Below are positions 27,125 through 40,401 of a stretch of 40,870 nt of DNA, in pieces. Origin of the DNA: a virus. Lineage: Duplodnaviria; Heunggongvirae; Uroviricota; Caudoviricetes. A model generated the notes under the pieces. That model saw only the letters and a program-made list of their open reading frames with translations, searched no databases and had not been told where the DNA came from. The translations under genes were made by a program, and so were the position numbers. Location: positions 1 through 40,870 of IMG/VR virus record IMGVR_UViG_2917413769_000003; one strand, written 5' to 3'. Positions within the stretch are counted from its first letter, which is position 1. Each line of letters begins with the position of its first letter.

Positions 27125-27799
27125 ATGATTGATACCACCGATATCCTTTCTCAAAACATCAAGTACCTGATGGACAAAGCCAAGATAAGCTCGATAACCG
27201 AGCTAGCTCGTCGGTTACAACTGAATCAGCCAACATTACACAGGCTGGTATCTGGGGAAGTGAAAGACCCGAAATACGCAACGCTGAAGCAGATCGCCGA
27301 TTACTTCCGAGTGTCCCCGATTGACCTGGCGGAAAAGAGCCTTCAGGAGATGAGTAACGGAGGCGACGCCAATACAACAACCTACATATCTCTTCGATTT
27401 AATAAGGTGCCGGTCTTGGGAAATACTCAGCTTGGTGTTGGGGGACTTTGGAGCGACACTCCGTATTCGGTGGGCAGCAGCGATGGCTTCATCTACTGGC
27501 CGACAAAAGATGAAGATGCATATGCTCTGAAATGCGTTGGCGACTCAATGATGCCAAGAATTAAAGAGGGGGAATTCGTAATCGTCGAACCCAACCATGA
27601 CTACGCCCCGGGGGATGAAGTTCTTGTCGTTACGCAGGATGGTGAAGTTATGGTTAAAACTTTCCTGTTCGAGCGCGATGGTCTGTTTCACCTGATGTCC
27701 GTAAACGAAGACCACCCACCAATTAGGGTATCACGCGAAAACATCGAGAAAATCCATTACGTGGCTGGAATTGCTAAATCCGCCCTACGCATGTACTAG
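27125..27799 (+). CDS. CI-like repressor (HTH + S24 LexA-type peptidase domain)
   Basis: 224 aa; N-terminal HTH; C-terminal KCVGDSMMPRI (Ser nucleophile) and VMVKTF (Lys). Confidence 0.8.
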   Translation: MIDTTDILSQNIKYLMDKAKISSITELARRLQLNQPTLHRLVSGEVKDPKYATLKQIADYFRVSPIDLAEKSLQEMSNGGDANTTTYISLRFNKVPVLGNTQLGVGGLWSDTPYSVGSSDGFIYWPTKDEDAYALKCVGDSMMPRIKEGEFVIVEPNHDYAPGDEVLVVTQDGEVMVKTFLFERDGLFHLMSVNEDHPPIRVSRENIEKIHYVAGIAKSALRMY

Positions 27800-27912: not shown

Positions 27913-28234
27913 TACGATATCGCATAAACAATGCGTTTTGTAATCGCTCTTTAACAAACTGAACCGCGTGACAGGCAAGCCGCTGTGCTCCTGGCAACAA
28001 AATAGCACCCGATGGGATCGAGGTAAGCGCCGAGTCCGTATGCGTACGGTAAGCGTAGAGGACCACACCGCGGCGAGCTGATAAGTCACGCAAGTTGAAA
28101 CGCCCCGACGATGGGGCGCTTAGTTCCCTTTGGGGTGCGGTGAATTGCAGTCCACCGAGACAAGCCGAAGCTCAGCATCGGCCACCGCACCACCAAAGTG
28201 AACTGACCAAGTGAAACTAACAGAGAGGTAAAAC

Positions 28235-28701: not shown

Positions 28702-29615
28702 GCTTAGAAACTAGTCTCGAACTTAACAACAAGCTGCTGACGCAGCACAACGCCCTGCTTGAACAGCTGATTACGGCACTGGCTTCAGGCCAGACAATTC
28801 AGCCGCAGACCCTCGTCACCCAGGTACAGGAATATCGCGAGACGGTACCGGACAAATCGGCCACTGATGACGAGCGGCCGGATCTGGAAACGCTGGAATT
28901 CAGCGACGTTATCGCGCTGGCATGTTTCTACCCTTTACCAGTTATGTACAGCTTCGAGATGTTCCAGCGCGCTATCGATTATCGCGATGCTGTTGGCGAC
29001 AAACGTGTGGTGCAGATCGACGCGCTGGACATGGCGCTCCAGGGTGTGAAACGCGCCAACCATCTGAGCAAGCCAGCACTGTTAGATCTGGCTCGCCACG
29101 TTATTCGCTTCTGGGATGATTTGCCGACTATTGAGTCCCGCCGCGACTTTGCCGAACGCCTGCTGGATGCGCCAGCTGCCGGACGCGACGAAGTAAAACC
29201 GAAGAAGGCCAGCGGCAAAGACAAACAGTCTGAGGAACGCACCGGGCCGTTTTACTGCAAAAGCGTAGACGGTAAGGCAGCCAGTGAGCTCCACACTTTA
29301 CGCAAACTGAATGCAATGCTGGAGAAAGGCCACGTTGAGATCAACCGGGTCGAGTACCTCCAACTGCAGGAAGAATTCGCACGTAAAGACGCAGTAAACA
29401 GCGGACAGGGTAAAGACGATGAAACGGATGATACTCCCGACTTTGCGGCACTGCGTAAACAGGCCGAAGGGCTGATTCTGCAGCTGGCGAAAGGTGGTTA
29501 CCGCGCCGAAGCCGTCGCCATTCTGGAAAAACATGGCGCCCAAAAACTTGGCGGTGTTGCTGACGAGGATCTCGCAGACGTGATCGCCCAGGCCGAAAAA
29601 GCGCTGGAGGGTTGA
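28698..29615 (+). CDS. Hypothetical phage early protein
   Basis: ORF track 28650..29615; start at ATG 28698 ([12 protein letters not shown]...) assumed. Confidence 0.5.
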
Positions 29616-29617
29616 GA

Positions 29618-30916
29618 ATGCCAGACGTTCACGCACGACTTTCCCCCTCTGCGGCGCATCGCTGGATGCGCTGCCCCGGTAGCCTGGCGCTGGAAGCCAC
29701 GCAGCCAGATAAAAGCAGCACCTTTGCGGAAGAAGGCACCGCAGCGCATGCACTCGCTGAAAAAGTGCTGCGCAACCGCCAAAGCCACCCCGAGCATTAT
29801 GCCGGGTGCAACGTCGCAATGTTCCTCGGCTCATATCCATTAAGCGAAAACCCGGATGACCAGTCCGGCCCGCAAGTGAACGAGGAAATGGTCGAGGCCG
29901 TTGGCCTTTATACCGACACGCTCTGGACGCTCGCTCAGGGCAACGAGCTGCTGGTCGAGCAGCGTGTCGACTTTTCCCACATCTTCGGCGTGCCTGATTC
30001 ATTCGGTACCGCCGATGGGGTAATCATCGCTGGCAACGAGCTGCAGATCCACGACCTCAAATACGGGAAGGGGGTTCGCGTCGACGCCGAGCAGAACGAA
30101 CAGTTGCAGCTGTACGCCCTGGGCGCGCTGGAGCAGTTCAGCATGCTGTATGACTTCGAGACGGTGCGCCTGTTCATCCACCAGCCGAGGCTTAACCACG
30201 TTTCAGAGTGGGCCCTGACGGTGGAAGAGCTCCAGGCGTTCGGCGAACGGGCGCAGGAAGCGGCGGCCAACGTGATCGTGATGTTCAACATTGCCGATTG
30301 CGAAGGCGTCGAAACGCTGCCGCTGGAAAACTTCACTCCAGGCGAAAAACAGTGTCGGTTCTGCAAGGCTAGTGCCATCTGCACCGCCCGGGAACAACTG
30401 CACATCAGTACCATCGCGGGGGATTTCGACGACATAACGCAGTCCGTTGGCGATCTGCTGGCTGACTCAATCGCGCGGGTACCGCTACTAACCGTTGAAC
30501 AGCTGGCAGAGGTATACAGCCAGGCGGACTTTATCGAATCCTGGCTAAAGGCCGTGCGCGACCGGGTGAACAGTGAGCTGAACGCCGGGCATCAGGTTCC
30601 GGGCTTTAAGCTGGTCACCGGCAAGCTGGGTAACCGCGCCTGGAGCAACGAAGCAGAAGCAGAAGAGCTGCTGAAATCCTTCAGGCTGAAACAGGAACAG
30701 ATGTACAGCATGAAAGTAATCAGCCCGACGCAGGCCGAGAAGTTGCTTAAGAAAGAAAGTCCGCGCCGCTGGACAAAAGCCGAAGCCCTGATCACCCGCG
30801 CTGACGGTAAACCCACCGTCGCCCCTGAATCTGACCCGCGCCCTGCGCTCAATATCAACCCTGTTAACGATTTCGACGACGTGTCCGACGACGCGCTCGC
30901 CGCAGACCTCATCTGA
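29618..30916 (+). CDS. PD-(D/E)XK family nuclease (DUF2800, Cas4/RecB-like) with C-terminal Cys cluster
   Basis: ORF track starts at TTG 29612; ATG 29618 with GGAGGG RBS; N-terminal [14 protein letters not shown] and [10 protein letters not shown] cluster. Confidence 0.65.
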
Positions 30917-30931
30917 TTAAGGAACAACTCC

Positions 30932-31480
30932 ATGAAAATTAAACTGAACAACGTCCGTCTGGCCTTCCCTGCTCTGTTCGAAGCAAAAACCGTGAATGGC
31001 GAAGGCGACCCGCGCTTCTCTGCTGTTTTCCTAATGGATCCGAAGCACCCGCAGCTGGACGAAGTCCGCAAAGCGCTGAAGCAGGTGGCGAAGGAAAAAT
31101 GGGGTGAGAAATGGGAAACCATTTACAACCAGCTGGAGAAAAAGCTCAACCTCTGCCTGCATGACGGTGACGAGAAAGCCGAATACGAAGGCTTCCCGGG
31201 CAACTTCTTCCTGAATGCTGCCAACAAAGCGCGCCCGGCAGTCATCGATCGCGACCGTTCTCCCCTCATCCAGGCTGATGGCCGTCCTTACGCCGGTTGC
31301 TACGTCAACGCGGTGATCGACATCTGGGCGCAGGACAACAACTTCGGCAAACGTGTTAACGCATCGCTGGGCGGCGTCCAGTTCCTGCGCGACGGTGACG
31401 CGTTCGCTGGCGGTGGTGTTGCCGCTCCGGACGACTTCGACGACATCAGCGAAGGCGCAGACGCGGGCGAGCTGATTTAA
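30932..31480 (+). CDS. Phage ssDNA-binding protein (DUF2815-like)
   Basis: 182 aa; follows DUF2800-like gene as in the common DUF2800/DUF2815/PolA phage module; acidic C-terminal tail (DDFDDISEGADAGELI). Confidence 0.6.
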   Translation: MKIKLNNVRLAFPALFEAKTVNGEGDPRFSAVFLMDPKHPQLDEVRKALKQVAKEKWGEKWETIYNQLEKKLNLCLHDGDEKAEYEGFPGNFFLNAANKARPAVIDRDRSPLIQADGRPYAGCYVNAVIDIWAQDNNFGKRVNASLGGVQFLRDGDAFAGGGVAAPDDFDDISEGADAGELI

Positions 31481-31525
31481 CCCCTACCCGCCCGGCCATG
31501 CGACGGGCTCTTTTCGGAAAACCCC

Positions 31526-31717
31526 ATGCGAAGGATTTATATCCGGCTGGTCATCACTCTGGCTATCGCCGCGCTCGTTTACGGCTTCCTGGTTCCTTCC
31601 CTGATCTCGATGAAGGACACCGTGGCTGTGCTGTCTGGTTTCGCGCTGGCGCTGACCGCGCCGCCGTGTCTGTTTGCCATTTTCAAAGGCATCTTTATTA
31701 CTAAGGAAAAGAAATGA
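31526..31717 (+). CDS. Small membrane protein (2 TM), partner of SPFH protein
   Basis: 63 aa, two hydrophobic helices; stop overlaps SPFH start (ATGA). Confidence 0.45.
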   Translation: MRRIYIRLVITLAIAALVYGFLVPSLISMKDTVAVLSGFALALTAPPCLFAIFKGIFITKEKK

Positions 31718-32550
31718 AGAAAATTATCTTTGCTGCCGTCGTCGCCCTGTCGGCGCTGGCTCTGTCTGGTTGCGAACGCGCCACCGTTCCCGCGGGTTAC
31801 GTCGGCGTTAAAGTGGACCTCTACGGTGACGAAAAAGGCGTTCAGCAGTCCGAAGTCGGCGTCGGTAAATATTGGCTGACGTGGAACGAAGAGATTTACC
31901 AGTTCCCGACGTTCAACCAGCTGCACAACTATGATCAGCCATTCACCTTCCAGACCGCCGACTCAATGGATGTGAAAGCCCGGATCGGCGTCGAATATTA
32001 TGTCGACCCCGAAAAGGTGACCAAAATATTCCAGACCTACCGCAAAGGGGTGGACGAAATAACCGAGGTCAACCTGCGCCAAAATATCAGTGATGCGCTG
32101 ATCAACCACTCCGGGAAGATGAATATCAACTCGCTGGCAGCCGGAGGCAAAACGCAACTGCTCGAACAGGTTACGCAGGATCTGAAGTCCAAACTTGACC
32201 CCATCGGCATCAGAATCGTGAAGCTGTCATGGGTAAGCGACCTGGACTACCCGCAGAAAGTGAAAGAATCCATCAACGCGAAAATCGAGGCCACACAGCG
32301 CGCGCTGCTGCGCGAGAACGAGATCGCCCAGTCTAAAGCCGAAGCCCAGAAGGCAATCGAGCAGGCACGCGGCGAAGCAGAATCCACCATGTTGCGCGCC
32401 AAAGCTGAATCTGACGCTATTGCCCTTCGCGGTGAAGCGTTACGCAGTAACCCCGAAGTGCTGCAACTGGAAGCGATTAATAAATGGAATGGCACATTGC
32501 CGCAGTATCTGACCAGCGGCGCAGCAACTCCCTTTATCCCCCTGAAGTAA
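31714..32550 (+). CDS. SPFH/band-7 domain lipoprotein (prohibitin/flotillin-like)
   Basis: 278 aa; lipoprotein signal [20 protein letters not shown]; band-7-like core and C-terminal coiled coil ([22 protein letters not shown]...). Confidence 0.65.
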
Positions 32551-32624
32551 TCACCTCACCCGGCCACGCGCCGGGTGTTTTGCAAAGAGCATCCCTTTTC
32601 GCAAAGCACCCGCGAGGACTATCT

Positions 32625-34691
32625 ATGCCTGAAAAAATTCTCTGGGGCGACCTGGAAACCTTCTGCAGCATTCCTATCAACAACGGCACGCACGCTTATG
32701 CGGAAAGTGTCGAGGTGATGCTGTTCGCCTGGGCAATCGGCGACGAACCGGTTAGCGTCTGGGATCTGACTGCTGGCGAACCTATCCCCGGCAGGCTGCG
32801 GAAGGCCATCGCCGACCCTGACACTATTCTATTTTTCCACAATTCACACTTCGACCGCACGGTCCTGCGCCATGCAATGCCGGAACTGGCACCCGATGTC
32901 ACCCGCTGGCGCGACACGATGGTGCAGGCGCTGGCGCACAGTCTCCCCGGTGCACTGGGGGCGCTCTGCGAGGTGCTGGGCGTTCCGCAGGACAAAGCCA
33001 AGGATAAAGAAGGTAAAGCGCTGATCCAGCTATTCTGCAAGCCACGACCGAAAAACAGCAAACTTCGCCGGGCCACCAGCAAAACCCACCCGGAAGAGTG
33101 GCGGCGCTTTGTTGCCTATGCCGGGCTGGATATTGAGGCCATGCGCGAAGTGCATAAGCGCCTGCCGAAGTGGAATTATCAGGGTGCAGAGCTGGCGCTC
33201 TGGCATCGCGATCAGCGCATTAACGACCGCGGCGTCTGCATGGATGTGCAGCTCGCGCAGGCGGCGATCGAGGCGGTAGACCAGGAGCAAAAGCGCCTGG
33301 CGAAACGCACGCAGGTGATGACCGACGGCGAAGTGCAGGCGGCTACGCAGCGCGATGCGCTGATTAAGCACATTGTTGAATCCTACGGCGTGGATCTGCC
33401 GGACATGCAGCGCAGCACGCTGGAGCGCCGCATCGCGGATCCTAATTTACCGTCTGCGGTGAAAGAGCTGCTACACATCAGGCTCCAGGCCAGCACCACC
33501 AGCACCAGTAAGTACAAATCACTGATGAAGGGTGTAAGCCGTGACGGTCGCCTGCGTGGCACGCTTCAGTTCTGTGGCGCATCGCGTACCGGGCGCTGGG
33601 CCGGGCGGTTATTCCAGCCCCAAAACCTGCCCCGCCCTTCCCTTGAGCAGGAACGTATCGACGAAGGCATAGAGGCGCTGAAATCAGGATGCGCCGATCT
33701 GCTGTTCGACAACATCATGGAGTTGACCAGCTCGGCTTTGCGCGGCTGCATTATGGCCCCCGAGGGCAAAAAGCTGGTGGTTAGCGACCTGTCGAACATC
33801 GAAGGACGAAAACTGGCCTGGCTGGCTGGGGAACAGTGGAAGCTGGACGCGTTCCGGGAGTTCGACGAGGGCACCGGGCCGGACCTATACAAACTGGCCT
33901 ACGCCCGCGCCTTCAACATCTCGCCGGATGATGTCGACAAATACCAGCGTCAGATCGGCAAGGTGATGGAGCTGGGTCTCGGCTTCGGCGGTGGTGTTGC
34001 GGCGTTCCTGACCTTCGCGCTGGTTTACGGCCTCGACCTTGACGAACTGGCGAACGCTGCGCTGCCGAATATCCCCCGCGATCTTATCCGCGAGGCGAAA
34101 AGCTGGTACGACGAATCGGTTAAACGCAAGTCGACCTACGGCCTGTCAGAGCGCGTATTCATCGCCTGCGATTCGCTTAAACGCCTCTGGCGCAGAGCCC
34201 ACCCGGCAACCTGCGATTTCTGGTACGAGCTGGAGCGCACCGTCCGCACCGCCATCGCAACCCCGAAAAAGACGCTGTACTGCGGCTATCTGAAAATTCG
34301 CCGCGATGGTGCATGGTTGCGCATACAGCTGCCGTCCGGGCGCGCGCTGTGCTACCCGTCCCCGTCCATTGAGAAAGGAAACATCACCTATCAGGGCGTA
34401 AATTCCTACTCGCGCAAATGGCAGCGGCTCAAAACCTACGGCGGGAAACTGGTGGAAAACGTCACCCAGGCGGCAGCCCGTGACGTTCTGGCCGGAAACA
34501 TGCCGCTGATCGAGGATGCCGGTTACAGCATTGTGCTGACGGTACACGATGAAGTGATCACCGAAGCGCCGGACACCGACGATTTCAACGAAACGGCGCT
34601 TTCCGCGCTGCTCTCCACTAACCCCGAATGGGCGCCCGATATCCCGCTGAACGCTGGCGGCTTCGAAGCGATTCATTACCGTAAGGATTGA
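32625..34691 (+). CDS. Family A DNA polymerase (phage-type, with 3'-5' exonuclease region)
   Basis: ORF track 32484..34691; start at ATG 32625 with GAGGA RBS; length and position after DUF2800/DUF2815 genes. Confidence 0.75.
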
Positions 34692-34695
34692 CCCC

Positions 34696-34905
34696 ATGAA
34701 ACAAGGCAACATCCAAAACTTCGCCATCATTGTTCTGGTAAACGGCGGAACTAAACAGGTCTTTTTGACCAAAGAACAAAAGCGGCTTTTCGCAAAGCTC
34801 ACTCTCGGCGCGTTGAGCGACAGGCCGATTACCATGATGCCTATCGACGACATGATCCAGCTGCAGCCGGACAATGACGCATTTTCAGACGGCGGCCCGC
34901 TATGA
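34696..34905 (+). CDS. Hypothetical small protein
   Basis: 69 aa ORF translationally coupled within PolA operon. Confidence 0.4.
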   Translation: MKQGNIQNFAIIVLVNGGTKQVFLTKEQKRLFAKLTLGALSDRPITMMPIDDMIQLQPDNDAFSDGGPL

Positions 34906-35114
34906 AACACATGTTTATGGTGATGGATAGCCGTGCACAGTTCGATATCGACCGCGCCGCTGTCCTCGAATGCTGCGGCGAAAAACAACCATCCTGGCGT
35001 TCCCTGTGCAGGGATTGGGGCGAACAAGGCGCAGTTCTGGTCCGCTTCCGTCTGGTACCAAACACTAACGGCGACGTAGCTACCGATCCCGAAGTTGTTG
35101 GCACCATCAAATAA
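34902..35114 (+). CDS. Hypothetical small protein
   Basis: 70 aa ORF, start overlaps previous stop. Confidence 0.4.
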   Translation: MKHMFMVMDSRAQFDIDRAAVLECCGEKQPSWRSLCRDWGEQGAVLVRFRLVPNTNGDVATDPEVVGTIK

Positions 35115-35125
35115 GGTAATCCCCT

Positions 35126-35341
35126 ATGTCATTCGAAAAACACGACAGTCCGTTGTATTTCCGGTCTGCGCGGGAGGCTATGCGTCTTGAGCAGGCTGGC
35201 GAGTATGACCGGGCGGCGAAGGTATGGGCCAAAGCAAACCGGGAATCACGCAACCCGGTAAACCAGCAATGGAGCGATAACCGCTCTGATTTCTGCATCA
35301 TGCAGAACATCCGCAGCAAACGTAAAGAGGTGCAACTGTGA
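35126..35341 (+). CDS. Hypothetical small protein
   Basis: 71 aa ORF, stop overlaps next gene start. Confidence 0.4.
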   Translation: MSFEKHDSPLYFRSAREAMRLEQAGEYDRAAKVWAKANRESRNPVNQQWSDNRSDFCIMQNIRSKRKEVQL

Positions 35342-36114
35342 TCCCAGGTGAAATTAACACCCTCATCAGCACTGGTGCGCTCTTTGTATCAAACCACAGC
35401 GGCGGAAAAGACAGTCAGGTGATGTTGATTAAACTCCTTGAGATTGTTCCCACTGCGCAGCTTATCGTTGTGCACGCATCGCTCGGTGTTATTGAGTGGC
35501 CAGGTGCACTGGAACTTGCTGAAACTCAGGCTGCAGGCGCGGGTCTGCCGTTCATCGTGGCTCGAGCCAGCAAGACCTTCTTCGAAATGGTAGAACGTCG
35601 CTTTGAGAATCGTCCAGAAGTTCCCAGTTGGCCATCCTCCAGCACCCGACAATGTACCAGTGACCTGAAGCGCGGCCCCATCCAACGCGAGGTACGCCGG
35701 TATGCAAAAGCCAACGGGTTTAAAACCATCGTTAACTGCCTCGGGCTGCGTGCCCAAGAATCACCTGGCCGAGCTAAGCGCCAGGTGTTCAGCAAAATGG
35801 GGATCAGCAACTCAGTTAATACCTGGTACGAATGGCTCCCAGTTCACGAACTGCTTACCGAGGAAGTATTCGCCACCATTCGAATGACTGGACAAGAGCC
35901 GCACTACGCCTACGCTCTGGGCAATGAGCGATTAAGTTGTGTGTTCTGCATCATGGCCAGCCGTAACGATATGGTTAACGGCGCCCGGCATAACCCACCC
36001 TTGCTGGAGGAATACGCAGACCTAGAGGCTAAGACTGGGTACACCATGCATATGAGCCGGATCCCCATTCGAGTGCTGGCGGCTGACGACGAAAACAAGG
36101 TACATGCAGCATGA
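35338..36114 (+). CDS. PAPS reductase-like PP-loop ATPase (phage PAPS reductase / DndC-like family)
   Basis: 258 aa; GTG start; PP-loop SGGKDS near N-terminus; C-terminal Cys pair (CVFC). Confidence 0.7.
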   Translation: MIPGEINTLISTGALFVSNHSGGKDSQVMLIKLLEIVPTAQLIVVHASLGVIEWPGALELAETQAAGAGLPFIVARASKTFFEMVERRFENRPEVPSWPSSSTRQCTSDLKRGPIQREVRRYAKANGFKTIVNCLGLRAQESPGRAKRQVFSKMGISNSVNTWYEWLPVHELLTEEVFATIRMTGQEPHYAYALGNERLSCVFCIMASRNDMVNGARHNPPLLEEYADLEAKTGYTMHMSRIPIRVLAADDENKVHAA

Positions 36115-36392
36115 CCTACGAGCGTGAAAGCACTATCGAAAAGCACCTCGTCGCCGAAGTGAAAAAGGCTGGCGGGCTGGCTTATAAATTCGTGTCGCCT
36201 GGCCGCCGCTCGGTACCAGATCGCATTGTGCTGTTACCCGGCGGCCGTCTCGTCTTTGTCGAATGCAAAGCACCTGGCAAACCACCACGCGCCGACCAGC
36301 TGCGCGAGCACGAACGGCTGCGCGCACTGGGCTTTTGCGTGGTGGTGCTGGATAGCAAAGACCTTTCGCAAGTGCTATCTCTAGCGCCCTAA
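36111..36392 (+). CDS. VRR-NUC domain nuclease
   Basis: 93 aa; PD-(D/E)XK core PDRIVLL...FVECKAPG; start overlaps previous stop. Confidence 0.7.
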   Translation: MTYERESTIEKHLVAEVKKAGGLAYKFVSPGRRSVPDRIVLLPGGRLVFVECKAPGKPPRADQLREHERLRALGFCVVVLDSKDLSQVLSLAP

Positions 36393-37307
36393 CTGAGGGT
36401 TGCGGAAGTTGTCAGCAATTCGCATCGCATCAGCTCTCCCGCCGGGCAGCATCCCCGCCTTCGTCAGGATGTATTTAGGGAACTTGGTGGGCAAATACTC
36501 ATGACGGAACCAACGACGAAATTCTGGCAACGCTTCGTTGGGATAAGCGTTAATCATCTGAGGATTCGAAGTAGATTGATTAAAGTCATCCGGATAGTGA
36601 TGCGCACATTGAACGCGATCACCGAACTGACGTGAGAGGCCGTTTGACGTCCAGTGACGCCCCCAGCATGAACCGACGCTGATATCAGGCACGGTATACA
36701 TATTCACCGCAAGACCAGCGGTAATCAGGTCAACCATTAAACCCGCAATTTCGTTAAAAATGATAAAGTGGCCGTCGGGTACCGTGCCGGTACTTTGGAT
36801 AATGGAAACCCGCTGATGATAAGGCCCCCAAGGGTCTTCTGGCTGGTATCGCAACGCGCCATAAATATAATCCCGAAGCCCGACTCGGGCTAATTCGCGA
36901 TAGTATTGTTGCGCGGTTGAATTTGATGCTGCTTGCGATTCAAAAGCATAAAACTCGAGCAGAGCCATACACACAATATCAGGGAATGCGTAATGTACAG
37001 AGCCTGCACGCATAACCGAGATAAATAGCACAGGGTCTGTATAACCGGCTTGCTGAAGATATGTGCTAATAAACTCCATTCGCCCACGAGTAAAAACCCC
37101 GCTCTGGAAGCACTGAGCGTATTCGTTTGCGATGTCTGCAATGTTTGTGCGGTTGACGCCGCAGATTCTTGCGAGTCCGTTCTGAGTAAGGTACGGAATA
37201 CCGTTCTCCAAAACACCCATTTCAATATCGTTGAAAACACCTTCCTGCCTAACTCCAAGATCTAATACAGCAGGGGGTGTGGGCTGAGGCTGATTCTGTG
37301 TAGTCAT
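36381..37307 (-). CDS. Hypothetical protein, opposite-strand low-GC insert (moron-like)
   Basis: 308 aa on the minus strand inside a plus-strand operon; visibly lower GC than flanks; 3' end overlaps VRR-NUC 3' end by 12 nt. Confidence 0.5.
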   Translation of the reverse strand: MTTQNQPQPTPPAVLDLGVRQEGVFNDIEMGVLENGIPYLTQNGLARICGVNRTNIADIANEYAQCFQSGVFTRGRMEFISTYLQQAGYTDPVLFISVMRAGSVHYAFPDIVCMALLEFYAFESQAASNSTAQQYYRELARVGLRDYIYGALRYQPEDPWGPYHQRVSIIQSTGTVPDGHFIIFNEIAGLMVDLITAGLAVNMYTVPDISVGSCWGRHWTSNGLSRQFGDRVQCAHHYPDDFNQSTSNPQMINAYPNEALPEFRRWFRHEYLPTKFPKYILTKAGMLPGGRADAMRIADNFRNPQLGR

Positions 37308-38804: not shown

Positions 38805-39001
38805 GCGAGCAACCCGACGATCTGCTCACCCCGGACGAGGTATGCCAGAAGCTGGGCATAACCCAGAAGACGTTATGCGACTGGAATATAAAGCACCGGC
38901 ATCGCGCCGTACTGGCCCCCATCCGTTTCAGCGCGAAAGTGGTTCGCTATGAGCGCCGTAACGTCGACGCCTTCATCCAGAAATGCCGCAGCCAGTATTA
39001 A
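38801..39001 (+). CDS. Excisionase / AlpA-like DNA-binding protein
   Basis: 66 aa in-frame part of ORF 38603..39001; ATG 38801 overlaps SNF2 stop; LLTPDEVCQKLGITQKTLCDW HTH; adjacent to integrase. Confidence 0.55.
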   Translation: MSEQPDDLLTPDEVCQKLGITQKTLCDWNIKHRHRAVLAPIRFSAKVVRYERRNVDAFIQKCRSQY

Positions 39002-40401
39002 CCCCGTCGCCGTAACAGCGCAGCCTGCGCGAGTATGCTCCGTTCGTGAGCCTCGAAGGCTTCGCGCTTCAACGCAATCTCTTCCTGCAAAATCTCGTCT
39101 GAAAAGTCGTAATGTTCTGCCATTGGGTCATCTGACTTGCTGGAGTGATGAAGGCACAGGAGGCTTATTTCCCTTCGATCTGATCGGGAATAACCTCTTT
39201 CCTTCATCAGGGCGATAACGTTGCTCTTAAGGAATTTACGGCACATCGTATTAAATGCCCCCTCTTTCCCTTTAATAGTCCCGTCATGCTTCATGCCTTT
39301 AACAGCGCCTTCCGGGCTATAGGTTTTCACCAGTTTATCCAGCGATCTTTTTGAAAATGGCTGCATTGGGTCACGCGGCTGCAGGAATACAAAATCGTTA
39401 TTGCACTCAGGAACTGAATCACGCCAGGCTTTCTGCTCGTCGATAATCCGCTGGATCTCTGGCGTTATTGGCAAGCGGAAAGCCTTTTGTGTTTTCATGG
39501 CCCCGCGCATACCGATAACTCCTTCCGGATAAACAATTTCGCCAGCATCTTCATTAATGTAATCCCAACGCAGGTTATGAACGTTAATCGGTCGAACGCC
39601 GGTAATAATCATATAGCGAACGGCGTTTTTCTGCTGTATTGAGGTACAGGCGGCCACGTTGAGCCAGAGCCGGGCGATGGATTCAATATCGGTAAAAAGT
39701 CGTGTCGGGGTGGGTTTCTGTACGCGGGAGGAAACATAATCGTCGGGCAGGCTGGCGGCAATGTTGCGGCCATTGCAAAGAGTGGGAGAGCAAAACTTCC
39801 AGAACCGACGAAGCTCGGCAAACAACTCCAGGGCGTTATTGTTCGAGCGAGTGGCGATCCATTCGTCCAGCACTTCCACCAGCCGAGGGTATGTCACGTC
39901 GCTGAACACTTCGCGCTCGCCGAACGTTGCTTTAATCCGGTCGATACGCACCCCGTAGGTGGTGAAACTGTCCGGGCTCAGCTTCTGCCGGGCCACTTTG
40001 GCTTTAAGGTCATCCCGGTACATTTCCAGCGCAGCATGGACGGACTCGGCTCGCAGGCCACCTTCGGCCATACCTGACGCCTTCTCGCGCGCCAGCTGAA
40101 TTGCGAGCTCCGGCCATTCGCCGAGCTTTTTACCTTTGAGCCCCATCTTTTTGGGAAACTCGGCGTAAAATGTAACCTTACCTGCTTTGCTGAAATCGAT
40201 GCGGAGATAGTTCTCTTTTTCGTATTTGGAACGGCGAGCCACGCCGGAAGCAGCGAGGATGGTTTTGGCGGCAGCAACACAGATTTTCATGTGTGCGCTG
40301 GTATAGGGAGGTTTACAGGCGTCCCACTTTTCAGACGCGGCTAAAACATCGTCATTATTGGGGCTATCCGGTTTATGTGTTACAGTGCGCGGCATTCTCA
40401 A
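38998..40401 (-). CDS. Tyrosine integrase
   Basis: 467 aa; C-terminal catalytic region with TGVRP (box I Arg) and LLCLHHSS...EHY (His/Tyr); at prophage end next to host gene. Confidence 0.8.
   Translation of the reverse strand: MRMPRTVTHKPDSPNNDDVLAASEKWDACKPPYTSAHMKICVAAAKTILAASGVARRSKYEKENYLRIDFSKAGKVTFYAEFPKKMGLKGKKLGEWPELAIQLAREKASGMAEGGLRAESVHAALEMYRDDLKAKVARQKLSPDSFTTYGVRIDRIKATFGEREVFSDVTYPRLVEVLDEWIATRSNNNALELFAELRRFWKFCSPTLCNGRNIAASLPDDYVSSRVQKPTPTRLFTDIESIARLWLNVAACTSIQQKNAVRYMIITGVRPINVHNLRWDYINEDAGEIVYPEGVIGMRGAMKTQKAFRLPITPEIQRIIDEQKAWRDSVPECNNDFVFLQPRDPMQPFSKRSLDKLVKTYSPEGAVKGMKHDGTIKGKEGAFNTMCRKFLKSNVIALMKERGYSRSDRREISLLCLHHSSKSDDPMAEHYDFSDEILQEEIALKREAFEAHERSILAQAALLRRRG

Follow-up and report, generated by a model that had tools for sequence, protein, structure and literature searches.

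The locus considered here raises the question of what a pair of small genes for membrane-associated proteins is doing between two genes of a phage replication module. The pair is carried by a Salmonella-type prophage, the DNA of which was analysed as one stretch of 40,870 nucleotides (the window). Genome papers have remarked on phage SPFH/Band-7 genes since 2006, but neither a functional study of these genes nor an experimental study of any member of the present family was found in the literature, and according to a paper of 2026 it "remains unclear" why phages carry SPFH genes (PMC13239085). The preliminary description of this DNA had likened the pair to cellular NfeD-SPFH operons and had suggested that it modulates host membrane proteolysis, through FtsH and the stability of a repressor or of CII, or that it acts in exclusion. 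The idea concerning FtsH and CII is already found in PMC4936722 and PMC10269572, as well as in the GenBank note for Aeromonas phage Gekk3-15; for this pair, both FtsH modulation and exclusion are speculation that has already been published. The features of the locus are as follows.

30932-31480, plus strand: gene for a ssDNA-binding/annealing protein (SSB) of the Gp2.5/Enc34 type, the left backbone flank (Pfam PF10991, Enc34_ssDNA-bd, E 2.6e-44; PHROG 112).
31484-32633, plus strand: exchangeable cargo segment, consisting of a spacer, the partner gene, the SPFH gene and a spacer with a hairpin (homology breakpoints against vB_EcoM-606R2).
31526-31717, plus strand: partner gene, encoding a predicted 63-aa inner-membrane helical hairpin (two hydrophobic segments; PHROG 1130, E 1.3e-22).
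31703-31717, plus strand: coupling junction, with an AAGGA Shine-Dalgarno at 31703-31707 inside the partner gene and ATGA at 31714-31717 (read from the sequence).
31714-32550, plus strand: SPFH/Band-7 lipoprotein gene, 278 aa (Pfam PF01145, E 1.1e-24; PHROG 200 'lipoprotein', E 4.7e-91; AF2 model).
31714-31773, plus strand: predicted lipoprotein signal peptide, with the lipobox L17-S-G-C20 at 31762-31773 and Glu at +2 (sequence).
31783-32346, plus strand: SPFH domain proper, residues 24-211 (Pfam envelope; secondary structure of the model).
32254-32547, plus strand: long helix 181-245, short helix 247-257 and conserved C-terminal tail (AF2 model; invariant columns of the SPFH alignment).
32557-32581, plus strand: terminator-like hairpin, with an 8-bp G+C-rich stem (32557-32564/32570-32577) followed by UUUU (RNA folding).
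32625-34691, plus strand: gene for the family A DNA polymerase PolA, the right backbone flank (Pfam DNA_pol_A; PHROG 17).

Both reading frames of the preliminary description were recovered together with their translational coupling, in which the ATG of the SPFH gene (31714-31716) lies over the TGA of the partner gene (31715-31717), and the pair does stand between an SSB-like gene and PolA. The true start of PolA, which is 90% identical to the polymerase of phage vB_EcoM-606R2, is at 32625 (688 aa) and not at the upstream ATG 32484; the spacer between the SPFH gene and PolA is 74 nt long and houses the terminator-like hairpin.

The match of the second protein to the Band_7 family extends over residues 24-211 and scores 87.9 bits against a cut-off of 23.6. 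In its AF2 model (pLDDT 79), beta strands within residues 21-97 are followed by an alpha/beta part (99-173) and by a single 65-residue helix (181-245), which corresponds to the C-terminal coiled coil that had been proposed. Comparison of the model with known structures by Foldseek recovered prohibitin, HflK/C, erlin, stomatin, QmcA and flotillin with E-values of 1e-14 to 1e-8, and gave a probability of 1.00 to these and to vault over 240-300 columns; the matches include prohibitin 8rrh, HflK/C 7vhq and 7wi3, and QmcA-YbbJ 8z5g (260-300 columns). As judged from the Band_7 match and from this full-length structural match of the predicted model, the 278-aa protein is a member of the SPFH/Band 7 superfamily. 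It is not filed as HflK or HflC, because its scores against the corresponding NCBIfam equivalogs lie far below threshold (TIGR01933, 35.6 against 159.4 bits; TIGR01932, 28.5 against 134.4).

All solved full-length SPFH proteins oligomerise into a ring or cage, and in the solved assemblies the long helix and the C-terminal region make up the cage wall and cap. In the phage protein the helix region matches prohibitin-2 by sequence (6iqe, E 0.002), and the C-terminal tail contains positions that are invariant in the SPFH alignment (W258, G260, P263, P273 and F274). Model confidence is low for the last 17 residues of the monomer, as is expected if these fold only in the oligomer. By analogy with the solved assemblies, the phage SPFH protein probably forms a cage as well.

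The N-terminus of the protein fits the lipobox pattern [LVI][ASTVI][GAS]C as L-S-G-C with Cys20, so that the lipobox first noticed in the preliminary description stands and lipidation is predicted. Among the 120 best homologues a lipobox is present in 69 (with E at +2 in 34, G in 15 and D in 7), while 51 have instead an uncleaved-looking N-terminal hydrophobic anchor, which lacks the Cys and can only sit in the inner membrane. Since the tether is N-terminal in either case, the SPFH domain of the exported protein would probably face the periplasm.

The Glu at +2 differs from the Asp that is the canonical Lol-avoidance signal of E. coli, and this copy could consequently end up in the outer membrane and be separated from its hairpin partner. 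The mismatch with the canonical inner-membrane retention signal is what might be expected of a lysogenic-conversion factor, that is, a lipoprotein made by the lysogen which acts, at the outer membrane or in vesicles, on an animal host or on bacterial fitness. A precedent, likened by description only, is PM0222 of Pasteurella multocida, a prophage-borne HflK/C-like SPFH protein which is reported to occur in outer-membrane vesicles, to trigger TLR1/2 signalling and to contribute to mouse virulence (PMC9872710), and the gene is also common in prophages of Salmonella and E. coli (in the latter, prophages and phage-plasmids of 475 of 5426 complete genomes, or ~9%). The family is, however, abundant in virulent phages, which do not form lysogens; the transmembrane anchor of the 51 homologues is unable to leave the inner membrane; the conserved partner is an inner-membrane protein; and a simple consensus scan did not find a promoter belonging to the pair. 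A role in conversion is judged very improbable.

The partner protein has two hydrophobic segments, at about residues 3-30 and 32-59, in agreement with the two-helix membrane protein that had been described. Since basic residues occur at both ends (MRRIYIR... and ...KEKK), the positive-inside rule indicates that its topology is probably N-in/C-in. The turn between the segments reads V23-P24-S-L-I-S28-M-K-D-T, and in the partner alignment P24 is invariant and S28 is kept in at least 90% of sequences. The protein matched no Pfam family. A profile search of 1.84 billion representatives returned 101 partner clusters, of which those matched as one single stretch stand alone and are 36-91 aa long, while two long proteins were matched only through repeated hydrophobic stretches. 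Read as a Rosetta-stone test, this search did not find the partner fused to an SPFH domain.

The description of this partner as NfeD-like has to be abandoned. None of 32 partner homologues matches the NfeD Pfam family at E-values up to 1, the partner profile has no solved relative in the PDB (YbbJ of 8z5g included), and the 63 residues are fully used by the two helices, which leaves no space for the OB-fold, the defining domain of NfeD. The possibility that the pair is a captured cellular NfeD-SPFH operon, with a truncated NfeD as partner, which works like QmcA-YbbJ or stomatin-NfeD, draws on the gene order and translational coupling, which resemble those operons, and on the structural match between the SPFH protein and QmcA-YbbJ; it is nevertheless already contradicted at the level of sequence by the results just given and by the stand-alone character of all of the single-stretch partner clusters (roughly 100). 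Topology also counts against it, because among known SPFH cages that of HflK/C faces the periplasm, as the phage domain probably does, whereas QmcA-YbbJ faces the cytoplasm (PMC13086221). Capture of this kind deserves hardly any credence.

That the pair is a real conserved unit is seen both from selection and from recurrence. Both genes are under purifying selection, with dN/dS values of 0.10-0.11 for the SPFH gene and 0.10-0.39 for the partner gene, and the 2-3 nucleotides by which the partner gene differs from close Salmonella relatives are in every case synonymous. A survey of related phages found the partner ORF directly upstream of the SPFH gene in nearly all inspected loci with an SPFH identity of at least 40%, and roughly 100 independent loci show the two genes in this order, which is far beyond chance. 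At the junctions elsewhere the genes either overlap by 1-20 nt or stand only a few nt apart, with the exception of the Vequintavirinae, in which a 54-aa ORF lies between the two genes. The carriers are prophages, phage-plasmids and virulent phages, and the loci include those of Salmonella, Serratia, an Acinetobacter plasmid, Aeromonas, Burkholderia, Xenorhabdus, Morganella and Sutterella, together with Klebsiella-type and N4-like loci, the P2-like phage P88, the Stx phage phiP27 and a phage-plasmid. A scan of genome contigs with narrow peptide patterns gave 10 loci, which served only as extra examples of pairing. Because a megablast search of the cassette against phage genomes returned no match, searches at the protein level were needed.

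An SPFH protein 99% identical to the present one occurs in Salmonella enterica on 272 contigs, and SPFH/Band-7 genes in general are found in 613 of 50,697 deposited phage genome records (~1.2%), from Staphylococcus to Caulobacter phages. The hosts of phages with the SPFH family comprise Staphylococcus, Bacillus, Caulobacter, Pseudomonas and enterobacteria, and homologues are present in the virulent groups Vequintavirinae, Kayvirus, N4-like Schitoviridae, Ounavirinae and Bruynoghevirus. Given the homologues in many virulent phages, a role in the lysogeny decision through CII is unlikely as a general function. The present pair is mosaic, with a partner closest to the phiP27 type and a mature SPFH protein closest to the Serratia/Salmonella type, and partner similarity is only weakly correlated with SPFH similarity (Spearman 0.23), which is unexpected for a tight, co-evolving interface. 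Genes annotated 'ClpX' and 'FtsH' beside an SPFH homologue in Erwinia phage phiEaP-8 were set aside as generic AAA ATPases without a protease domain.

Comparison with related phages also bears on the position of the pair. DNA homology with the closest phage, vB_EcoM-606R2, ends at 31483 and restarts at 32634, and the slot between SSB and PolA is occupied by unrelated genes in 606R2, YeP4, BPP-1 and APSE-1 (the cargo in relatives being a 209-aa reverse-strand gene, DUF2303, a 62-aa ORF and a coiled-coil protein); in prophages of Salmonella and Serratia it contains the same pair. The relatives thus identify the pair as exchangeable cargo, and, in the manner of a moron, it sits between two genes that are linked in related phages. 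The view that it is embedded in the replication operon accordingly holds for its position and fails for its membership: the two genes form an accessory membrane module that is exchanged horizontally, and they are not replication machinery. The G+C content of the pair (~0.52-0.56, against 0.57-0.63 in the flanks) does not mark out a clear compositional island, the difference being too weak to use.

Accessory cargo with an envelope location, present in virulent and temperate phages alike, could also serve superinfection exclusion, in which the tethered, periplasm-facing pair would block the DNA entry or tail-tip action of other phages and so protect the infected cell or the lysogen. The known exclusion proteins T4 Imm and Sp, P22 SieA, TP-J34 Ltp, T5 Llp and Cor are likewise small accessory membrane proteins or lipoproteins of virulent phages or prophages, made early or from the prophage. 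A TIR candidate defence gene (PADLOC PDC-S35, E 1e-108) lies in the neighbouring post-PolA slot of 606R2, and of that phage only. Neither protein of the pair, on the other hand, matches any family of the PADLOC-DB defence models at E-values up to 0.1, and the SSB-PolA slot cannot be called a defence hotspot, because the cargo of the relatives is annotated neither for defence nor in any other informative way. Temperate phages usually express their exclusion genes in the lysogen, and exclusion proteins are usually narrow in range, whereas no promoter of its own was detected for the pair, its orientation is that of a lytic early operon, and the family extends over phages of Staphylococcus, Bacillus, Caulobacter, Pseudomonas and enterobacteria, a breadth which suggests that its function at the membrane is generic. 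Exclusion is on this evidence unlikely.

The arrangement of the locus provides some indication of timing. The pair has the same orientation as the early exonuclease-SSB-PolA operon, and no sigma-70-like promoter precedes it in the simple consensus scan, which is crude and leaves room for expression in a lysogen. Downstream, the hairpin folds at -17.7 kcal/mol (z -3.2; 2 of 200 shuffles fold as well) and was not listed by a consensus terminator scan because it is followed by only 4 U; another hairpin noticed by eye, after the SSB gene and likewise not listed by the scan, is not significant (z -0.2) and belongs to the backbone common to BPP-1. Elsewhere the pair occurs in a P2-type early operon, in a lambdoid left operon beside xis/int, in the RecA/exonuclease region of a phage-plasmid and in early regions of virulent phages. 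From the co-orientation with the operon and the lack of a recognisable promoter, expression of the pair most likely falls early in the lytic cycle or follows induction.

A further possibility is that the pair reinforces or organises the cytoplasmic membrane during infection or sets the time of lysis, as a scaffold which delays premature triggering of the holin, aids the export of lysis enzymes, or counters depolarising abortive-infection effectors. In Kayvirus, mbpS lies in the lysis cluster beside MbpV, between lysK and tgl, and the authors of PMC7150955 suggest that MbpS helps Tgl to be exported by the Sec route. In bacteria, SPFH proteins act together with the phage-shock system of membrane repair (PMC8581546), and a generic membrane role would suit a family with so wide a range of hosts. 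The Kayvirus protein, however, is only 27% identical to the present one and has a different, one-helix neighbour, and the pairs of the window and of enterobacterial, P2-like and lambdoid phages and phage-plasmids lie in early or replication-recombination regions, away from the lysis genes. Stabilisation or lysis timing is a distinctly unlikely function for the pair.

The preferred reading, which is tentative and is given a little less than an even chance, is that the pair is an exchanged membrane module, expressed early, in which a tethered SPFH cage and a membrane hairpin sequester host inner-membrane proteins. The SPFH protein would be exported and held at the membrane by its N-terminus, by a lipid here and by a transmembrane helix in many homologues, and would oligomerise into a membrane-seated ring or cage by means of the long helix and the C-terminal tail. 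The partner would form a hairpin in the inner membrane, its two ends cytoplasmic and only the Pro/Ser turn in the periplasm, and would most likely mark or anchor the membrane patch under the cage, or be enclosed by it. Made early in the lytic cycle or after induction, the cage would probably fence off or sequester host inner-membrane proteins for the benefit of the phage. The leading candidate for a client, although an unproven one, is FtsH, which in the cell is the client of HflK/C, the cage that faces the periplasm. A more far-reaching form of the proposal, which appears doubtful, is that these proteins constitute a distinct, phage-specific type of SPFH system with a non-NfeD partner, which many unrelated phages and phage-plasmids would use early in infection to set cages on the inner membrane of the host; such cages would capture a host factor of universal occurrence, FtsH for example, or bar superinfecting DNA from crossing the membrane; if it were true, the module would be a general device for host takeover or exclusion and not an accessory of lysogeny.

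For this window the result is mostly clarifying. It does provide several handles on the membrane effects of viral SPFH scaffolds: a hairpin companion which in Gram-negative hosts is nearly always present, with an invariant Pro and a near-invariant Ser in its turn; the separation of this partner from NfeD; an anchor that alternates between lipid and helix; and the status of the module as exchangeable early cargo.

Among known systems, HflK/HflC shares with the phage protein the fold, the order of domains (SPFH domain, long helix, C-terminal tail), an N-terminal membrane anchor and a periplasmic SPFH domain, the last of these probable for the phage protein from its lipobox or signal-anchor. Unlike HflK/HflC, which are two paralogues forming a hetero-oligomer, have a helix as anchor and are without a dedicated partner, the phage has one SPFH gene, a lipid anchor and a 2-TM partner, and identity to the solved HflK/C chains is about 16-22%. 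This similarity is weak and no closer than that to prohibitin or erlin, so that nothing in it points specifically to FtsH. The NfeD-SPFH operons (QmcA-YbbJ, YqiK-YqiJ and the archaeal stomatin pair PH1511-PH1510) resemble the phage pair in having a translationally coupled small membrane-protein gene upstream, and QmcA is among the structural matches; they differ in that the phage partner has neither an NfeD/OB-fold domain nor a protease domain, in that their SPFH domain is cytoplasmic while that of the phage is probably periplasmic, and in that the present module is borne by phages and phage-plasmids.

In MbpV-MbpS of Kayvirus (the Staphylococcus phage K group), likewise, the gene of a small membrane protein comes first and abuts that of an SPFH protein anchored at its N-terminus, but the pair belongs to phages of a Gram-positive host, and MbpV has one helix, a long charged tail and no Pro/Ser turn motif. 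The closest counterpart is the catalogued family itself, since the pair is a direct member of PHROG 200 'lipoprotein' and PHROG 1130 'membrane protein', with relatives in P88 gp11-gp12, phiP27 L05 and the 'band 7' proteins of rV5-like and N4-like phages; SPFH identity to these members is 51-72%, the gene order is the same and nothing essential is different. The pair is thus ordinary cargo of an already catalogued family, neither a replication component nor a new kind of system, and what is particular to this copy is its mosaic make-up and its place between SSB and PolA, within a replication module of the BPP-1/APSE-like kind.

The preliminary description of two genes joined by an ATGA overlap, encoding a 63-aa two-helix protein and an LSGC lipoprotein, matches the sequence exactly, and an AAGGA Shine-Dalgarno sequence lies 6 nt upstream of the second ATG.

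31526-31717, + strand: partner ORF, 63 aa, two hydrophobic segments, basic termini
31714-32550, + strand: SPFH ORF, 278 aa, lipoprotein signal peptide with lipobox LSGC at its start
31714-31717, + strand: ATGA junction, SPFH ATG overlapping partner TGA

The SPFH/band-7 identity proposed for the second protein is confirmed by its Pfam match to Band_7 (E 1.1e-24, far above threshold) together with near-full-length structural matches to SPFH cage subunits. An AlphaFold2 model built with 30 homologues as input (pLDDT 79) has a beta-rich region and an alpha/beta region, then one helix of 65 residues (181-245), a shorter helix and a tail that is conserved. A Foldseek search of the PDB with this model finds the subunits of all SPFH cages solved so far: prohibitin (8rrh, E 4e-14), HflK/C (7vhq, 7wi3, 9cz2), erlin, stomatin, QmcA-YbbJ (8z5g), flotillin and the vault shoulder. 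The protein belongs to PHROG 200 “lipoprotein” (E 4.7e-91), and the pair is a member of an already catalogued phage family, ordinary in its occurrence. Membership of HflK or HflC proper was rejected, the NCBIfam equivalog models giving 35.6 and 28.5 bits where 159.4 and 134.4 are required.

The conserved partner, whose supposed kinship to NfeD was tested and rejected, is the most useful new handle on the module. The sample of loci with an SPFH relative comprised 80 viral contigs, 10 genomes, and chosen phages from GenBank and E. coli replicons; in each, the stretch immediately 5' of the SPFH gene was examined for a small hydrophobic ORF. A 2-TM ORF of 52-78 aa is present there in essentially every locus with SPFH identity of at least 40%, for example in Salmonella and Serratia prophages (in the same slot between SSB and PolA as in the window), P2-like P88 (gp11-gp12), Stx phage phiP27, a lambdoid prophage at yecN, a 109-kb phage-plasmid, Aeromonas phage Gekk3-15, Burkholderia phage PhiBP82.1, an Acinetobacter plasmid, virulent rV5-like Vequintavirinae, N4-like phiEaP-8, and Xenorhabdus, Morganella and Sutterella genomes. 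The two genes usually overlap by 1-20 nt or are separated by a few nt; the Vequintavirinae have one extra ORF between them. Next to more distantly related SPFH genes stand different small membrane proteins, with one helix (Kayvirus MbpV, Pa223_016) or three (CcrRogue gp178), and Pistou and PBC2 have no small membrane neighbour at the SPFH gene. In an alignment of 32 partners Pro24 is invariant and Ser28 is kept in at least 90% of sequences, both within a short inter-helix turn of the form hydrophobic-P-x-hydrophobic-hydrophobic-S; a strict regular expression for this motif was positive in 73 of 108 loci, and the negative loci inspected carry variant turns (ARFS, NSSN, SSRL and similar). A profile search of 1.84 billion cluster representatives returned 101 partner clusters, almost all stand-alone and 36-91 aa long, with no SPFH-domain fusion among them.

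Several records lack annotation of the partner gene (comparison sequences, each in its own numbering): phiP27 (L093, NC_003356, 3307-3489), Acinetobacter plasmid CP060164 (L009, 3784-4011) and phiEaP-8 (L096, about 2280-2510), whose SPFH start is placed too far upstream and runs across the partner ORF. Over-extended starts of this kind are possibly the source of about 80 surplus N-terminal positions in the PHROG 200 profile. The extra Vequintavirinae ORF (L023-L030, L037; about 2832-2996; 54 aa, MLLNLKASTWEKLQHLA...) is conserved, has no Pfam match, and by eye looks like a small DNA-binding protein of ribbon-helix-helix type.

The window is a temperate phage or prophage, and its early region runs, all on the + strand, from the exonuclease through SSB, the pair, PolA and the PAPS-reductase-like gene to the SNF2 helicase.

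27125-27799: CI-like S24 repressor gene
29612-30916, + strand: DUF2800/PD-(D/E)XK exonuclease gene
30932-31480, + strand: Enc34/Gp2.5-type SSB gene
32625-34691, + strand: family A DNA polymerase (PolA) gene
35338-36114, + strand: PAPS-reductase-like gene, 3' of PolA
+ strand, after the PAPS-reductase-like gene: SNF2 helicase gene
38998-40401: tyrosine integrase gene

The mechanical PolA ORF begins at ATG 32484 inside the SPFH gene (735 aa), while homologues and gene calls agree on 32625 (688 aa), so that SPFH and PolA are separated by a 74-nt spacer with a hairpin. Polymerase identity is 90% with Escherichia phage vB_EcoM-606R2 and 68% with Bordetella phage BPP-1; the SPFH protein shares 99% identity with a protein of Salmonella enterica found on 272 contigs with the same gene order. 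DNA homology to vB_EcoM-606R2 ends at 31483, three bases past the SSB stop, and restarts at 32634, nine bases into PolA. The junction is a variable slot, since relatives carry different genes there: Salmonella and Serratia relatives have the pair, vB_EcoM-606R2 an unrelated 209-aa gene in opposite orientation, Yersinia phage YeP4 two unrelated genes (one of them DUF2303), BPP-1 a 62-aa ORF and APSE-1 three other ORFs. In position the pair is embedded between SSB and PolA, as first described, but it is cargo and not replication machinery. The pair might serve in superinfection exclusion, a role we consider rather unlikely.

The post-PolA slot (34696-36114) is variable too. The window has three ORFs of 69-71 aa there, none with a Pfam match, followed by the PAPS-reductase-like gene; in vB_EcoM-606R2 (L002, 7123-7884), the closest relative, the slot is occupied by a TIR-domain protein with matches to PDC-S35, a candidate defence family of PADLOC (E 1e-108), and to Pfam CAP12/Pycsar TIR. 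A 308-aa ORF without Pfam match (36381-37307, - strand), between the PAPS-reductase-like and helicase genes, may be another reverse-oriented cargo gene. On the Acinetobacter plasmid (L009/L010) a Tad2-like (anti-Thoeris family) gene at 5811-6389, about 1 kb downstream of the pair, adjoins a BPP1_LPA-domain gene and ParM/StbA partition genes.

Purifying selection acts on both genes (dN/dS 0.10-0.39 for the partner, 0.10-0.11 for SPFH); the rate of evolution is much higher in the partner. Differences from close Salmonella relatives number 2-3 in the partner, all synonymous, and in SPFH 37-46 synonymous and 2-4 non-synonymous; between two Salmonella relatives the pair differs at 1.5-8% of bases, against about 10-12% in PolA. 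The window partner is closest to the phiP27 type (61%) and the mature SPFH protein to the Serratia type (79%), partner and SPFH similarity correlate weakly (Spearman 0.23), and several other SPFH genes align with the window at the DNA level from near 31762, at the lipobox. The module is therefore itself mosaic, with a joint between 31526-31773 (phiP27-type) and 31774-32550 (Serratia/Salmonella-type); the phiP27 likeness includes the SPFH signal peptide, the N-terminus MKKIIFA being common to both.

Because crude scans found no sigma-70-like promoter in front of the pair and a terminator-like site at 27921-27935, 3' of the repressor gene and 3.7 kb upstream, we infer that the pair is co-transcribed with the early operon in lytic growth. 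Between SPFH and PolA lies a G+C-rich 8-bp hairpin followed by UUUU (-17.7 kcal/mol, z -3.2).

SPFH relatives were detected by tblastn in 613 of 50,697 phage records, from hosts including Staphylococcus (142), Pseudomonas, Erwinia, Klebsiella, Bacillus, Burkholderia and Caulobacter, and viral SPFH folds extend to giant viruses. Many of these phages belong to groups known to be virulent (Vequintavirinae, Kayvirus, Schitoviridae, Ounavirinae, Bruynoghevirus, jumbo phages), which is at odds with a role confined to the choice between lysis and lysogeny. A related gene occurs in 475 of 5,426 complete E. coli genomes, at 316 chromosomal and 196 plasmid places. A role as lysogenic-conversion surface factor is very unlikely; the Pasteurella prophage protein PM0222, possibly a relative, is reported to occur in vesicles and to be a TLR1/2 agonist (PMC9872710).

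Phage SPFH genes have been noted in T4-like phages (in 2006; PMC1524935), in Kayvirus as MbpS (PMC7150955) and in Vi01-like phages (PMC10892097); no functional test of them was found in the literature, and a 2026 paper states that the reason for them “remains unclear” (PMC13239085). In Caulobacter phage CcrRogue (L097, 2438-4888) the gene for the SPFH lipoprotein is found two genes away from one for an RtcB RNA ligase (Pfam E 5e-123), and in Pseudomonas aeruginosa the SPFH gene PaFlo8 lies inside an rtc RNA-repair locus (2026 paper, PMC13086221); this may be coincidence or a recurring association.

The lipobox would place the mature SPFH protein in the periplasm, tethered at its N-terminus. 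Of the 120 best homologues (61-99% identity), 69 have a lipobox, and 51 have instead a hydrophobic N-terminal segment without Cys (e.g. MMKFIGSVIAVIVAFFALIWLFISMTT...) that looks like an uncleaved signal-anchor. A signal-anchor is confined to the inner membrane, where the partner also resides, and the periplasmic face of that membrane is therefore the most likely site of action for the family. In E. coli, retention in the inner membrane is canonically signalled by Asp after the lipid-modified Cys; the window copy has Glu (E 34, G 15 and D 7 among lipobox-bearing homologues) and may itself end up in either membrane.

The best-supported picture is that the pair is a phage-borne membrane scaffold. 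Produced early in the lytic programme, the SPFH protein would oligomerise into a ring or cage on the periplasmic side, an assembly shared by every full-length SPFH protein solved so far; the hairpin would be its membrane-embedded companion, exposing only the invariant Pro/Ser turn to the periplasm, and the module would partition or sequester host inner-membrane proteins. A role in membrane stabilisation or lysis timing is an alternative that we regard as unlikely. For the scaffold, FtsH would be the most obvious candidate client, because HflK/C, which regulates it in the cell, shares this fold and orientation and because FtsH is universal, in keeping with the broad host range, although nothing in the sequence is specific to FtsH. 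The interpretation given in the preliminary description is supported in part; its FtsH/CII speculation was published earlier (PMC4936722, PMC10269572) and is also made in the GenBank note for Gekk3-15. The “FtsH” and “ClpX” genes near SPFH in phiEaP-8 (L112, 263-1705 and 3264-4019) are misleadingly labelled, being generic AAA ATPases with no protease domain.

Among known systems, HflK/C lies at the periplasmic face of the inner membrane, as proposed for the phage family, but comprises two paralogues where the window has one SPFH gene, whereas QmcA-YbbJ faces the cytoplasm, opposite to the orientation proposed here (PMC13086221).
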